NCBI GenBank assembly: GCA_048617235.1
Contig: JBMCHT010000001.1
Location: 54,043-118,042 of the forward strand
DNA length: 64,000 bases
Direction: 5' to 3'
DNA from: Patescibacteria group bacterium
GTDB lineage: Bacteria; Patescibacteriota; Minisyncoccia; Phycocordibacterales; XYD1-FULL-46-19
The notes below the pieces were generated by a model that did no database searches, was not told the origin of the DNA, and was given only the letters and a program-made list of their open reading frames with translations. Each line of letters opens with the position of its first letter. Positions within the stretch are counted from its first letter, which is position 1. The position numbers and the translations under genes were made by a program. Positions 13,187-63,932 of this stretch are shown one piece after another.

Positions 13187-13215
13187 TTGCCTAAAATCCA
13201 AATATTAGTCATAAT
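13187..13215 (+). promoter_or_regulatory. Sigma70-like promoter TTGCCT-N17-CATAAT
   Basis: Hexamers at 13187-13192 and 13210-13215 with 17-nt spacer. Drives the GC-rich element that follows. Confidence 0.4.
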
Positions 13216-13216
13216 A

Positions 13217-13500
13217 AAAATGGACTGTGCACCACAACTAAAAGGGAGGGAGGTGATTCTTATCGGCACCCAAACCACCACAAAGATGCCCGTTTTCAAA
13301 ATCTCGGAACACCGAGATGAAAACGGCTTCTTCAGCGTCAAACCGGTAAAGGCAACCCCGGTCGCCCCTACCAAAAACGGCAAAAAAGAGGAACCCGTCA
13401 AGCGGGATCCTCGCAACTAGCCTCACCCCCGGAGAAGCATATGATTATAGTCTCATACGGTGCACCCGAGACAAATCATGTCCTTCTCCGGGGCTTTTTT
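13217..13500 (+). other. GC-rich promoter-to-terminator unit, either a structured RNA or a small-protein mRNA (44-66 aa; ATG 13220, GTG 13253 or ATG 13286, stop 13420). Unclassified.
   Basis: ~55% GC in a ~35% GC background. 'AAAGGGAGGGAGG' purine tract. Long-range pairing GTGCACC/GGTGCAC. Terminal hairpin CCCCGGAGAAG...CTTCTCCGGGG plus T6 at 13427-13500. Confidence 0.35.
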
Positions 13501-24284: not shown

Positions 24285-24432
24285 AATATTGAATTAAAGT
24301 TTTAATAATAATTTAAATTATAACATTTTTAATTTATATTCCTATGTTTTGAATAGAAAATATAAAAATAACACCCCGAGAAAGTTTCGTCTCCCGAGGT
24401 GCTCATCCTCTCCCCCACACCCCTCATATCTC

Positions 24433-24597
24433 TTAATTTTTGTTAAGAGACATAAGGGTACACGTTAATGAAACTCCCGCCATCACCCCCGCCCGCCAGA
24501 AATTGGGCGAGTCTAGGGCAGTGGCATCGAATATGGCTAGCATCAAGCTGATGCCAGCCATAAACGCCCAGCCGGTTTTTGTGAATTTAATACCCAT
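24433..24597 (-). CDS. Small (54 aa) hydrophobic protein encoded in a GC-rich islet. Alternatively a structured RNA.
   Basis: Strong RBS 'GGAATGGAGGAAAAG' 5 nt before ATG (24597). Product MGIKFTKTGWAFMAGISLMLAIFDATALDSPNFWRAGVMAGVSLTCTLMSLNKN. Two downstream hairpins, the second (CACCTCGGGA...TCTCGGGGTG plus TTATTTTT, ~24380-24420) an intrinsic terminator. Confidence 0.4.
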   Translation of the reverse strand: MGIKFTKTGWAFMAGISLMLAIFDATALDSPNFWRAGVMAGVSLTCTLMSLNKN

Positions 24598-24711
24598 CTT
24601 TTCCTCCATTCCTCTGTCTTATAGAGGGGTTAAAGTTTCAAAATCTACCGATAACTATAGCATATATTATTAAAAAAGTAAAGGTATTTTTAAATCAATT
24701 TTATTAAAAAA

Positions 24712-50392: not shown

Positions 50393-50473
50393 GTTATACC
50401 ATTATAAATGGAGAGAAAGTTATAGGAAGACTTTCTCAAGAAGGAAAGAAAAAGGAAGGAAGGAAGGGAAAAT

Positions 50474-50815
50474 ATGTCCGTAGTAGCCTCACACCCGCCG
50501 GCCGTTGAGCCGGCAAACGATCAAGTGGTACTGGAAGTCTCGGACTTCGCCTCGGGAAACCAGGTTGCCCGAAACCTCAAACTGGGCAACCGGTACGGGC
50601 GTCCGATGACTCAAGACGAGGTTCTGGAACAGAGCCTCGACCTCCTACAGGAGGGCGTCGCCATCCTCTGCCCGGGCCCCGGGCAGAAAAACTGCATCAT
50701 GATCTATACCGACGGTCGCGGCAACATTGTGGCCACGATCATTGAAGAGACGACCAGTTTCCCGGCCGGGGACTTCAAGGTCGCCTACATGGTGGCCGTC
50801 CCCAATAATTTCTAA
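50474..50815 (+). CDS. High-GC (~60%) small protein of unknown function. Likely foreign origin or an unusual constraint.
   Basis: 113-codon ORF after a 60-nt polypurine leader ending 'AAGGAAGGAAGGAAGGGAAAAT-ATG'. GC3-rich codon usage unlike neighbours. Followed by a terminator hairpin. Confidence 0.5.
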   Translation: MSVVASHPPAVEPANDQVVLEVSDFASGNQVARNLKLGNRYGRPMTQDEVLEQSLDLLQEGVAILCPGPGQKNCIMIYTDGRGNIVATIIEETTSFPAGDFKVAYMVAVPNNF

Positions 50816-50833: not shown

Positions 50834-50867
50834 CCCCGCGCCAAACTTGGTGCGGGGTTCTCTTATA
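50834..50867. terminator. Intrinsic terminator shared by the high-GC ORF (+) and uppP (-)
   Basis: CCCCGCGCC-aaacttg-GGTGCGGGG (9 bp with one G.U), followed by TTCTCTT. Confidence 0.5.
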
Positions 50868-55103: not shown

Positions 55104-55322
55104 TAGATGGGAGAAGGTGGCCGATCTAAGGCAAAAACCAACACACAATTCAGTAAAAAAACGCCTTGGTATTAACCACCTTCTCCCCTTCCTTCTGCCT
55201 TTTAAAGATAAAGCGGGGTCGAGACGACCCAAATCCCACAAACAGCTGTGAGGCCTGTTTGATGAAAGATTAGCCGTTCTCGGCTCCGCCCCCAACCCCC
55301 GAATAACTCGGGGGTTTATTTA
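55104..55322 (+). ncRNA. Candidate ~215-nt structured RNA (unclassified), promoter-to-terminator unit with no downstream same-strand gene
   Basis: 12-bp perfect closing helix GGGAGAAGGTGG(55109-55120)/CCACCTTCTCCC(55176-55187). Hairpins GGGTCG-aga-CGACCC and CAAACAG-N9-CTGTTTG. Terminator CCCCCGA-ataac-TCGGGGG plus TTTATTT. Confidence 0.45.
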
Positions 55323-55752: not shown

Positions 55753-55836
55753 AATCTTTATTTTAACATTTTATATTTTTTTAACCAATTAAAAAACCCG
55801 GGGCTATCTCTTTTGCGAAATTACCCCGGGTGTGTT

Positions 55837-56265
55837 TTAGCGAGTCAAAATTTTGTCCACGCAGGGAACAAGGTGAGGCAATTGAAGACAGATTGTATTC
55901 CGCAACTCAAATACCTCACCGGGGGTAGAAGTGTGTTTAAAAGCGCCTTGCAAGCAAAGCTTAATCATCACCTCGGCCAATCCCTGTAGTGACTGACTCT
56001 CAAAAATAAGACTATCAATCAGCTTAATAATCTTTATCAAGTCAGCCGGTTCTTTGGCCTGAAGTCGAGCTTGGCACAAGGCCCTTAAAGCCAAGAGGCC
56101 GTCAATCCGACTGAAGGCCCGGCCAACCTCCAACCACTGCCAACACGCCAGATCCTCAATCAAAAGACCTTGAAAAAAGCGCTGGGCTTTCTCCCTAGTT
56201 TTCGATTGAGAATTTTGATTGACATACTGATTAAAAAGCTTCAGCATCTGATTCAAATCAGCCAT
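55837..56265 (-). CDS. Hypothetical alpha-helical protein (142 aa), second gene of a GC-richer two-gene operon. Start at ATG 56265, not the longer ORF-track call.
   Basis: Strong RBS 'AGAGGAGGA' 6 nt upstream. Start 1 nt after the zinc-ribbon gene's stop. Downstream hairpin plus T6 terminator (~55795-55830). Confidence 0.5.
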   Translation of the reverse strand: MADLNQMLKLFNQYVNQNSQSKTREKAQRFFQGLLIEDLACWQWLEVGRAFSRIDGLLALRALCQARLQAKEPADLIKIIKLIDSLIFESQSLQGLAEVMIKLCLQGAFKHTSTPGEVFELRNTICLQLPHLVPCVDKILTR

Positions 56266-56266
56266 C

Positions 56267-56443
56267 TTAAGTCCTCCTCTTTTTGCCCTCCAAACATTTC
56301 GGACACAAGTACCGACGCTGTCCCCGCTTATCCTTTTTGACAACCAAAGCAAAGGCCTGAACCCTGTTCGACCAGCGACCGGATTGGCCACAAATATCAC
56401 AAACCTGATTGTCCGGCAAAGAATAATAGACAGATACCTTCAT
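56267..56443 (-). CDS. Small zinc-ribbon protein (58 aa, CxxC-N27-CxxC)
   Basis: 'MKVSVYYSLPDNQVCDICGQSGRW...RYLCPKCLEG'. RBS 'AGGAAGAAG' 7 nt before ATG 56443. The ORF-track TTG extension is unlikely. Confidence 0.5.
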   Translation of the reverse strand: MKVSVYYSLPDNQVCDICGQSGRWSNRVQAFALVVKKDKRGQRRYLCPKCLEGKKRRT

Positions 56444-56552
56444 TTTCTTCTTCCTTCTGTTAAAGACCCGAGTTTCTATTACAGCAAACAAGAAAAGTTA
56501 TTAAAAAGCAAGCCCTTGCCTCTTTGGGTAATATCGGGCAAAATATTAAGAT

Positions 56553-57806
56553 ATGAAACAAAACTGGTTTGAAAAATTTTATCAGCGTCATTTTGAAGAT
56601 TGGAGTAATATATCCGGATCCGAATTATTGAATTTTATTTTACCTAAAGCCGAAACTATCATTACTGAAAAAGAATTAACAGAAAAATTAAACTCCGGCA
56701 AAAAATTAAAAATTAAATTCGGCATTGATCCCACTGGAGCTCAAATACATTTAGGTCATGTAGTACCCATTATGCTTTTGCGCCAATTTTTAAGAGCCGG
56801 ACATGATATAGATTTTATTATAGGAGATTTTACCGCTCGTATCGGAGATCCGGCCGGTCGTACTACTGAAAGAGTACCTTTAACCTCAAATCAAATAGAT
56901 GACAATCAAAAAAATTACGAACAACAAATAGCTCGTTTTATAGATTTGGATAAAATCAGAGTCCATCGTAATTCTTCTTGGCTAACGCAAGTTTCTTTGG
57001 AAGATTTAATCAGTATTTTACAAACTGTTAGTGCTAAAGAGGCTCTCCAAAGAGATGACTTTCGTCAACGCCTGAAAAAAAATGAAGGTTTATCTTTAGC
57101 TGAGATAATTTATGGTGTTTTAATGGGTTTAGACTCTCTGGAGCTTAAAAACGATATCGAGGTCGGTGGAATTGATCAATTACTTAATTTTCAACAATGT
57201 CGAGAAGTAATGGCCGCTACCGGCCTAGAAAAAGAAACAGTCATTACCACTCCTTTAATAGAAGGTTTAGCCGGGGATGGTCAAAAAATGAGTAAAAGTT
57301 TAGATAATCATATCCCCTTAGAAGCCCCGGCAGATGAAAAATTCGGCTTAATTATGTCTGCCCCCGATAATTTAATTACTCAATATACTCGAAGCTGGGC
57401 AGATATTAATCAAGAAGAATTAACGGATTGGAATAATTTCATTTTAAGTGATCCCCTGGAAGCCAAAAAGCAATTAGCTAGTTATTTAGTAGCCATAGAA
57501 GCTAAAAATCCTGAGGCCGGCGTAACCGCTAGAGAAAATTTTGAAAGAAAATTCAGTCAAAAAGTTTTAAAAGAAGAAGATTACATTACCATTAAAACCG
57601 GAGACGGTACGACTATCTTCTCAGCTTTAGCCAATAGTGATCAATTTTCCAGCAACAACCAACTTCGACGACTTTTCCAAGAAACTGCTATTCGTCTTAT
57701 AACCGAAAATAATGAAGAAGAAATTTTAGAACCGGATTTTGTTATAACTAAAAATATTAATCTGCGAGCCGGTAAAACTCTTTTCTTGAAAATAAAAATT
57801 GATTAA
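56553..57806 (+). CDS. tyrS: Tyrosyl-tRNA synthetase
   Basis: 'GIDPTGAQIHLGHVVPI' HIGH region, 'IGDFTARIGDPAGRTTER', 'KMSKSLDN'. ~417 aa. Confidence 0.85.
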   Translation: MKQNWFEKFYQRHFEDWSNISGSELLNFILPKAETIITEKELTEKLNSGKKLKIKFGIDPTGAQIHLGHVVPIMLLRQFLRAGHDIDFIIGDFTARIGDPAGRTTERVPLTSNQIDDNQKNYEQQIARFIDLDKIRVHRNSSWLTQVSLEDLISILQTVSAKEALQRDDFRQRLKKNEGLSLAEIIYGVLMGLDSLELKNDIEVGGIDQLLNFQQCREVMAATGLEKETVITTPLIEGLAGDGQKMSKSLDNHIPLEAPADEKFGLIMSAPDNLITQYTRSWADINQEELTDWNNFILSDPLEAKKQLASYLVAIEAKNPEAGVTARENFERKFSQKVLKEEDYITIKTGDGTTIFSALANSDQFSSNNQLRRLFQETAIRLITENNEEEILEPDFVITKNINLRAGKTLFLKIKID

Positions 57807-63545: not shown

Positions 63546-63932
63546 TTATTCTGTGGTTTGACCGTCAAAATGTTCCTCGATCTCATCAGCTTTGGTTTTA
63601 TGAACCGTGCCTTCTTTATGCTCCGGCGGAGAATAAACGGAATACAATTTCAAAGGAACCGAGCCGATATTAATCACATTATGGCTCATTCCTTGGGGGA
63701 TGACAATGGCGTCATCATCACTCAATTCATGTTCGACTCCATCTAAAACAGCTTTAGCCTGACCGGCTTCTATTCTAATAAACTGATCTAAGTCATGAAC
63801 CTCCTCCCCTATTTCATCCCCCGGTTCAATAGACATTAAGACCAACTGGCTATTTTTAGCCGTATAAACCACCCGCCGATAATCCGTATTATCTTTGGTA
63901 GCTTTTTCAATGTTATCTATATATCCTTTCAT
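63546..63932 (-). CDS. Cupin-domain protein
   Basis: 'EPGDEIGEEVH...DQFIRIEAGQAKAVLDG' two-His cupin motifs, 128 aa. Confidence 0.65.
   Translation of the reverse strand: MKGYIDNIEKATKDNTDYRRVVYTAKNSQLVLMSIEPGDEIGEEVHDLDQFIRIEAGQAKAVLDGVEHELSDDDAIVIPQGMSHNVINIGSVPLKLYSVYSPPEHKEGTVHKTKADEIEEHFDGQTTE

Follow-up and report, generated by a model that had tools for sequence, protein, structure and literature searches.

A probably foreign, translationally coupled gene pair encoding a putative zinc ribbon and a predicted helical protein in an AT-rich Patescibacteria genome

A 64,000-nt stretch of the genome of a Patescibacteria group bacterium (assembly GCA_048617235.1, contig JBMCHT010000001.1, positions 54,043 to 118,042; the whole stretch is called the window here) carries two small, adjacent open reading frames (ORFs) on its minus strand. 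The first encodes a 58-aa zinc-ribbon (ZR) protein and the second a 142-aa all-helical protein. With moderate confidence, we interpret the pair as a real, horizontally acquired and self-contained bicistronic accessory unit, in which a nucleic-acid-binding zinc ribbon and a partner resembling tetratricopeptide repeat (TPR) proteins would form a small regulatory or adaptor complex. This interpretation builds on the anatomy of the pair, on signs that the helical ORF is coding, and on a foreign base composition and an anomalous use of Shine-Dalgarno (SD) sequences.

All coordinates are those of the window. The ZR ORF (56267..56443, minus strand, stop codon included) starts with an ATG at 56443 and stops with a TAA at 56269-56267, and its product is MKVSVYYSLPDNQVCDICGQSGRWSNRVQAFALVVKKDKRGQRRYLCPKCLEGKKRRT. 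The protein has four cysteines, Cys15/18 and Cys46/49, and all four sit in the two knuckles of a CxxC-N27-CxxC arrangement. The helical ORF (55837..56265, minus strand, stop codon included; NCBI MFW5853127.1) runs from an ATG at 56265 to a TAA at 55839-55837. A single base, 56266, lies between the ZR stop and the helical-gene ATG, giving a TAA-G-ATG junction and confirming the junction described in the original prediction, a model's reading of the same DNA that had placed the stop of the 58-aa CxxC-N27-CxxC protein 1 nt before the 142-aa ATG. Directly 5′ of the ZR ATG is a purine-rich leader with the first SD (CAGAAGGAAGAAGAAA; 56444..56459, minus strand). Its anti-SD duplex had an energy of −6.2 kcal/mol, the anti-SD sequence being assumed for this and all other duplex energies, as the 16S rRNA 3′ end lies outside the window. 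The second SD, AGGAGG (56273..56278, minus strand), is found within the end of the ZR ORF, 7 nt 5′ of the helical-gene ATG, with a duplex energy of −11.9 kcal/mol. It should be the translational-coupling signal of the second cistron.

The pair ends in an intrinsic terminator (55791..55831, minus strand), composed of an 8-bp G+C stem with the arms ACCCGGGG and CCCCGGGT, an inner 5-bp AUUUC/GAGAU helix, a 6-nt loop and a T6 run. With −23.8 kcal/mol, it agrees with the hairpin plus T6 end proposed earlier. A consensus scanner missed this terminator, because it permits only 3-8 nt loops. On the other side of the pair, a weak candidate promoter (TTAATA - 17 nt - TAATAG; 56476..56504, minus strand) was read by eye.

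Automated gene calls treated the two frames differently. The mechanical ORF list over-extended both of them, to 74 aa (TTG start) and 187 aa (GTG start), as the original prediction had stated. The NCBI annotation uses the 142-aa start (MFW5853127.1, ‘MAG: Patescibacteria group bacterium’; MAG, metagenome-assembled genome), and the gene call of a Logan assembly is the 187-aa form of the helical ORF, running across the ZR ORF. The ZR ORF itself is missing from the NCBI annotation of the MAG and from a 15-billion-protein collection. A second assembly (Logan SRR11308339) agreed with the locus at every base across 6.4 kb, so the pair is no assembly artefact.

Several lines of evidence showed that the helical ORF behaves as a coding sequence. 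When the region was simulated with a first-order Markov model, only ~0.3% of the runs reached an open frame of 200 codons. The GC content by codon position was 0.52/0.34/0.50 (chi-square p = 0.003), and the codon log-odds derived from host genes were best in the called frame (−0.16 vs −0.5 to −1.0). We consider, with good confidence, that this gene is real. The ZR gene is probably real as well, being supported by the placement of all its cysteines in two CxxC knuckles, by a well-placed SD and by the exact stop-G-ATG junction. By a rough Poisson estimate, two CxxC knuckles would occur in 58 random codons with a probability of ~0.002. A single frameshifted gene was rejected as an explanation of the two frames, since the strong and properly spaced second SD favours two cistrons. 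Rfam revealed no RNA family over the pair, the single match (snoR118, E = 1.4) being at chance level.

The composition of the pair differed from that of its host, as had been claimed before. GC content was 35% for the window and 0.45-0.47 for the pair. At the third codon position (GC3), the ZR ORF reached 0.54 and the helical ORF 0.50, compared with 0.256 ± 0.029 for 43 long host ORFs, none of which exceeded 0.31. This places the pair ~8 standard deviations above host genes. GC at the first and second codon positions of the helical ORF was near host values, and the second-position value of the ZR ORF was somewhat higher. Coding sequence shaped by another mutational bias would be expected to show such a GC3 shift with host-like first and second positions. 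Judging from GC3, the donor of the pair would have had roughly 45-50% GC.

SD use set the pair apart in a similar way. Host genes are nearly SD-less, with a mean anti-SD duplex energy of −2.0 ± 2.7 kcal/mol over the 71 ORFs of the window, and many ATGs were seen to lie a few bases 3′ of a TATAAT-like box, which suggests that they rely on leaderless or SD-independent initiation. Only five of the 71 ORFs reached −6 kcal/mol or better; the helical gene was the strongest of all and the ZR gene the fifth. The strong purine SDs that the original prediction had described are thus borne out by the duplex energies, and they are an anomaly because host genes are almost SD-less. A literature search on SD use in Patescibacteria gave nothing usable. 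By two independent features, GC3 and SD use, the pair is probably foreign, and more clearly so than could be seen for the original prediction.

Neither protein has a detectable family, and searches ranging from Pfam to exhaustive HMMER upheld the original view that no family could be recognised for either product. Pfam, NCBIfam, PHROGs and PADLOC scans of both proteins yielded only sub-threshold zinc-ribbon noise. In a search of 5.8 billion proteins, the helical protein matched itself alone, and the 58-aa protein shared no words with any entry. Exhaustive HMMER against 1.84 billion representatives returned the helical protein itself plus one spurious hit, a 2671-aa repetitive protein (P0002, E = 8.6e-11). 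This hit was rejected, as seven copies of a 30-residue repeat aligned to residues 98-127 and inflated the score; the protein looks like a eukaryotic NLR-type protein. The PDB sequence search gave no match for the helical protein and only weak matches to ribosomal protein bL28 for ZR. Nothing significant was found by tblastn in 50,697 phage records (best E = 0.4, for ZR) or in plasmids. No relative of the pair was detected in BFVD or in scans of IMG/VR and JGI metagenomes. The sole IMG/VR match was rejected as a chance 10-residue CPKCLEGK knuckle in a large, helicase-looking protein.

Both proteins are basic. ZR has an isoelectric point (pI) of 10.0 and a net charge of +9.5, and the helical protein has a pI of 8.7. 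A single-sequence AlphaFold2 (AF2) model of ZR (mean predicted local distance difference test score, pLDDT, of 62) had a β-hairpin and a short helix. Strands 34-37 and 43-46 lie between the knuckles in this low-confidence model, the arrangement of a C4 zinc ribbon. The corresponding model of the helical protein (pLDDT 66) was compact, with eight helices. Foldseek, a check suggested with the original prediction, gave no significant match for either protein. Ribosomal zinc ribbons were among the Foldseek matches of ZR, none with E ≤ 0.001, and the best, though weak, matches of ZR in the sequence and fold searches were ribosomal or other nucleic-acid-binding zinc ribbons. The top matches of the helical protein were TPR and designed repeat proteins, with a best E of 0.14 and TM ≤ 0.5 on a model of pLDDT 66. 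Pfam TPR models did not match it, and its residues 44-73 can be read by eye as one TPR-like motif.

Taken together, the signals outline a transcription unit in which a weak candidate promoter would serve the SD-led 58-aa gene and the SD-led 142-aa gene coupled to it, up to an intrinsic terminator. Recent horizontal transfer probably brought this unit into the intergenic space upstream of the tyrosyl-tRNA synthetase (TyrRS) gene of an AT-rich, largely SD-independent genome. The TAA-G-ATG junction and the AGGAGG in the ZR end would couple translation of the two cistrons, so that the products would be made together and would most likely form one complex. In such a complex, the very basic C4 ribbon may bind DNA or RNA, and the helical-repeat protein may serve as a protein-interaction scaffold that contacts a protein target. 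In our view, the pair neither acts as an enzyme nor belongs to the core housekeeping factors.

A number of points weigh against this interpretation. The ZR ORF lacks a compositional coding signal (codon-position test p = 0.38), because it is too short to give one. No homologue was found, and with it goes any evidence from conservation for selection on either ORF. Confidence in both structure models is low (pLDDT 62-66), and no fold match was significant. The consensus scan found no promoter for the pair, leaving it without a convincing one. We found no donor, no mobile-element gene and no flanking repeat that would explain an insertion. Complex formation, nucleic-acid binding and a regulatory role are proposed by analogy. 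Finally, the orphan status of the pair is in part a sampling effect, given the isolation of the lineage. The nearest relatives of the host TyrRS (56553-57806, plus strand) among 5.8 billion proteins were only 51-53% identical, and by this measure the organism is in a Patescibacteria lineage that has been sampled once, with no close relative sequenced. A TyrRS-based scan of GTDB representative genomes recovered one distant locus without synteny, and the contexts of the nearest TyrRS homologues were not syntenic either. The synteny and co-occurrence check that had been proposed therefore recovered no syntenic locus and no relative.

The pair lies next to a structured unit resembling a small RNA (sRNA) on the plus strand (55107..55322), whose adjacency had been pointed out in the original prediction (there at 55104-55322). 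A consensus scan found a strong promoter (TTGACT-16-TATACT) and a terminator. The minimum free energy of the RNA was −84.5 kcal/mol, with z = −6.8 relative to shuffled sequences. It belongs to no Rfam family, the nearest match (mir-H20, E = 0.35) being at chance level. In its 5′ hairpin, an SD-like GGGAGAAGGUGG pairs with CCACCUUCUCCC. The region also holds a 44-codon GTG ORF (55117-55251), which starts with MADL like the 142-aa protein; this shared start is probably a coincidence.

The adjacency may matter, as the RNA bears an exposed complement to the ZR leader, and we treat it as a lead to a possible regulator of the pair. The linker at 55188-55208 (CUUCCUUCUG-ccuu-UUAAAGA), predicted to be single-stranded, is a perfect complement, over 10 + 7 nt interrupted by a 4-nt bulge, of the part of the ZR leader that includes the SD (56450-56466). 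In the longer segment, CUUCCUUCUG of the sRNA would pair with CAGAAGGAAG of the leader. The 9-mer AGAAGGAAG occurs exactly only at the sRNA linker and the ZR leader in the 64-kb window. When intramolecular structure was included, the ZR initiation region had the best cofold gain of 71 (−16.2 vs −5.4 ± 3.4), followed by the 113-aa ORF described below and the helical gene. Composition-preserving shuffles of the sRNA-leader pairing gave p < 0.0003 and p = 0.002. These values come with caveats: about 10 other sites in the window lie within 2 kcal/mol of the ZR leader pairing, CU-rich tracts generally favour SD-like purine tracts, and the observation was made post hoc. From sequence, regulation of the pair by this RNA is doubtful, with a low probability.

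The alternative that survives best is a toxin-antitoxin (TA)-like module. It could be of type II, with ZR binding DNA as antitoxin and autorepressor and the 142-aa product serving as the toxin, or type I-like, with the sRNA blocking the SD of the operon. The pair is a compact bicistronic operon of coupled 58-aa and 142-aa genes, and TA modules would account for a small first gene, a second gene of ~140 aa coupled to it at a distance of 1 nt, and a terminator of its own. Foreign composition, the lack of relatives and the position between housekeeping genes fit as well, as does a neighbouring sRNA whose exposed 10 + 7-nt complement covers the ZR leader and SD and for which ZR ranks best of 71 in cofold gain. 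However, no toxin, antitoxin or defence model from Pfam, NCBIfam or PADLOC matched. Both proteins are basic, in contrast to the usual acidic/basic pairing, the TPR-like repeat is no known toxin fold, and an operator palindrome upstream was not evident. The roughly 10 competing sites for the sRNA linker also count against the type I-like form. We therefore judge a TA-like module to be unlikely. Among specific candidates, a HEPN toxin was rejected because no Rx4-6H motif was seen on reading the sequence, and a Doc/Fic toxin was rejected in the same way for want of its motif. A pair of extracytoplasmic function (ECF) sigma and anti-sigma factors was rejected as well, as Pfam gave no match.

A broader role for the sRNA can be imagined, which we rate as quite improbable. 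In this scenario, the pair and the three small ORFs described below (50474-50815, 24433-24609 and ~13187-13420) would form a set of foreign mini-cassettes, GC3-rich and dependent on SDs, in a genome whose own genes are essentially SD-less or leaderless. The sRNA would be an anti-SD-like silencer or regulator of these imported genes. Besides the ZR leader, its linker would have the SD regions of the 113-aa ORF and of the helical gene as pairing partners. Were this true, foreign mRNAs led by an SD would be singled out for control at the level of translation, which would be unusual.

Other GC-rich ORFs were seen in the window. The 113-aa acidic ORF at 50474-50815 (plus strand; NCBI MFW5853120.1) has a GC of 0.59 and a GC3 of 0.75, belongs to the strong-SD ORFs and is the most foreign-looking gene of the window. 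Its leader (50432-50473) has a long purine tract, GGAAGGAAGGAAGGGAAAAT-ATG, and a hairpin is located downstream at ~50836-50858. No Pfam, PADLOC or plasmid tblastn match was obtained for it. An unannotated hydrophobic ORF of 54-58 aa at 24433-24609 (minus strand) lies between AT-rich genes and has a GC3 of 0.58, a GGAGG SD (anti-SD duplex −5.8 kcal/mol) and a −20 kcal/mol terminator at ~24368-24400. It resembles a type I toxin or a small membrane protein. A third small ORF, at ~13187-13420 (plus strand; 66-77 aa, start ambiguous), has a GC of 0.52, a GC3 of 0.61 and an internal GGGAGGGAGG tract. It is located just 5′ of a bL27-like gene region, and its long hairpin and T-run extend to ~13500. 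Each of these three ORFs ends in a hairpin followed by a T-run. A cupin-domain ORF at 63546-63932 (minus strand), with a GC3 of 0.38 and a GC of 0.41, stands between host genes and the GC-rich cassettes in composition. Within the window there are no paralogues of the pair, the GC-rich ORFs are not related to one another, and BLAST detects no internal repeat.

The original prediction had regarded such zinc-ribbon plus helical pairs as typical of phage or defence accessory modules or of regulatory factor pairs. This claim found no positive support, as PADLOC, PHROGs and the phage and plasmid tblastn searches were all null and the neighbours are housekeeping genes. The derivation of the pair from a phage moron or an anti-phage defence cassette is consistent with an autonomous unit that has its own terminator, a weak candidate promoter and a deviant base composition, features that fit phage morons, and genes without relatives are common in phages. 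Yet PHROGs, PADLOC, phage tblastn, IMG/VR and BFVD gave no significant match, and the nearby ORFs that were checked are either housekeeping genes or unassigned, none of them an obvious integrase, capsid or defence gene. We see little likelihood in this origin.

The genomic context in detail is as follows. The neighbours are the divergent TyrRS gene (56553-57806), a membrane-anchored 141-aa protein of host composition, a sugar nucleotidyltransferase, threonyl-tRNA synthetase and an amino-acid-kinase-family protein, which is likely a UMP kinase. No integrase, transposase, phage, capsid or defence gene was seen among the nearby ORFs or in the small number of domains that were checked. We found no flanking direct or inverted repeats that would hint at a transposon or an integration site. 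PADLOC assigned no families to the pair or to two neighbouring ORFs, and the proposed check for a defence island turned up no defence gene or model at the locus.

The two frames might instead be non-functional, that is, chance or decaying frames in a GC-rich insert, which could be what is left of imported DNA, for example, or a structured RNA. The missing homologues, the missing codon-position signal of ZR, the skipping of ZR by the NCBI annotation pipeline PGAP and the lack of a clear promoter would all be explained in this way. Against it stand the periodicity and unusual length of the helical ORF, the intact stop-G-ATG junction, and two well-spaced, strong SDs in an otherwise SD-poor genome. 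The concentration of all four cysteines in two CxxC knuckles, the terminator directly after the second stop and the lack of an RNA family in Rfam also argue for genes. We place this explanation at the same low level as a phage or defence origin.

The last alternative makes ZR a horizontally acquired, loop-deleted paralogue of zinc-binding (C+) bL28, with the helical protein as its partner or chaperone and both associated with the ribosome. The top PDB sequence matches of ZR were mycobacterial bL28 proteins (E = 0.12), with a common VCDICG first knuckle and an RW-N-Q...C..C-x-x-GK stretch at identical spacing to the second knuckle. A tblastn of the window with Mycobacterium smegmatis bL28, a query of partly approximate sequence, found ZR alone (E = 0.007, 28% identity, one 15-residue gap). 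Mycobacterium tuberculosis bL28 was Foldseek rank 2 of ZR, and the window yielded no canonical rpmB. However, all scores were sub-threshold, and the Foldseek match had an E of 1.0 on a model of pLDDT 62. Pfam and NCBIfam scans at E ≤ 1, which presumably include bL28 models, returned none of them. The 15-residue gap falls exactly on the conserved basic loop that joins the first knuckle to the RW/PN-Q segment; this loop carries a GxxVSHSxxRT-like sequence, which we take to be the most conserved bL28 segment. Basic C4 ribbons are alike by composition, and the rpmB negative covers 64 kb of the genome only. A foreign GC3 (0.54 vs 0.26) and the lack of a homologue in any collection argue against a core ribosomal gene. 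Membership of ZR in bL28 is thus not supported at the sequence level, a bL28-derived origin of the pair is very unlikely, and convergence among basic C4 ribbons may account for the resemblance. The original prediction had named clear homology to a housekeeping factor of host-like composition as the result that would speak against it; none was found, the sub-threshold likeness to bL28 being the only hint of this kind.

We thus retain the interpretation of the pair as an imported bicistronic accessory unit. As such, it is one more lineage-specific cassette without relatives, and it includes a small zinc ribbon that was overlooked by automatic annotation. Patescibacteria are regarded as open to DNA uptake, although their genomes retain few accessory genes. 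The pair would show that foreign small genes were recently imported into a reduced, AT-rich genome of this group. With GC3 and SD use as two independent signatures, SD-poor genomes could be screened for foreign genes in a simple way. A major open question would be affected only if the link to the sRNA or a role at the ribosome were established.

Comparison with known systems gave partial likenesses. Type II TA operons share with the pair a small first gene coupled to a gene of ~140 aa, as well as a patchy or foreign distribution. They differ in that the products of the pair are both basic and without a toxin, antitoxin or defence profile, and the second product is helical-repeat-like. Neighbour-encoded type I pairs, such as tisB/IstR-1, share a nearby small RNA in which an unpaired stretch complements the leader and SD. 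The RsaE/RoxS-type sRNAs with C-rich motifs likewise have an unpaired, pyrimidine-rich segment between stable hairpins that is complementary to several SD regions. The sRNA described here differs from them in having no Rfam family, and its regulatory action is predicted from sequence. Phage morons are likewise short units with their own translation signals and terminator, deviant in composition and placed between unrelated genes. Unlike them, the pair lies outside a prophage, has no phage homologues, and has a weak promoter and no identifiable donor.

Among protein systems, LapB/YciM (TPR plus rubredoxin) likewise combines a helical-repeat module with a C4 metal-binding module. LapB was among the non-significant Foldseek matches of the helical protein (ranks 8 and 37), and rubredoxin was among the weak Pfam matches of ZR. 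The pair differs in consisting of two proteins, in the opposite order and with no transmembrane segment, and the similarity is not significant. Patescibacteria would not be expected to possess the lipopolysaccharide pathway that LapB regulates. The C+ bL28 proteins of actinobacteria share the K/G-rich tail, small size and high basicity of ZR, which has in addition a 13-residue N-terminal extension. Small stand-alone zinc ribbons (HEWD PF20576, rubredoxin-like, DUF7573) form the last group; we know of no established function of these families to transfer, and a literature search on the HEWD domain gave nothing usable. HEWD was the best Pfam match of ZR (E = 0.0043, 17.2 bits, residues 9-42), which is under the 27-bit gathering threshold, and the HEWD motif is absent from ZR. 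The domain is nevertheless similar to ZR in being a generic two-knuckle ribbon of ~60 aa.

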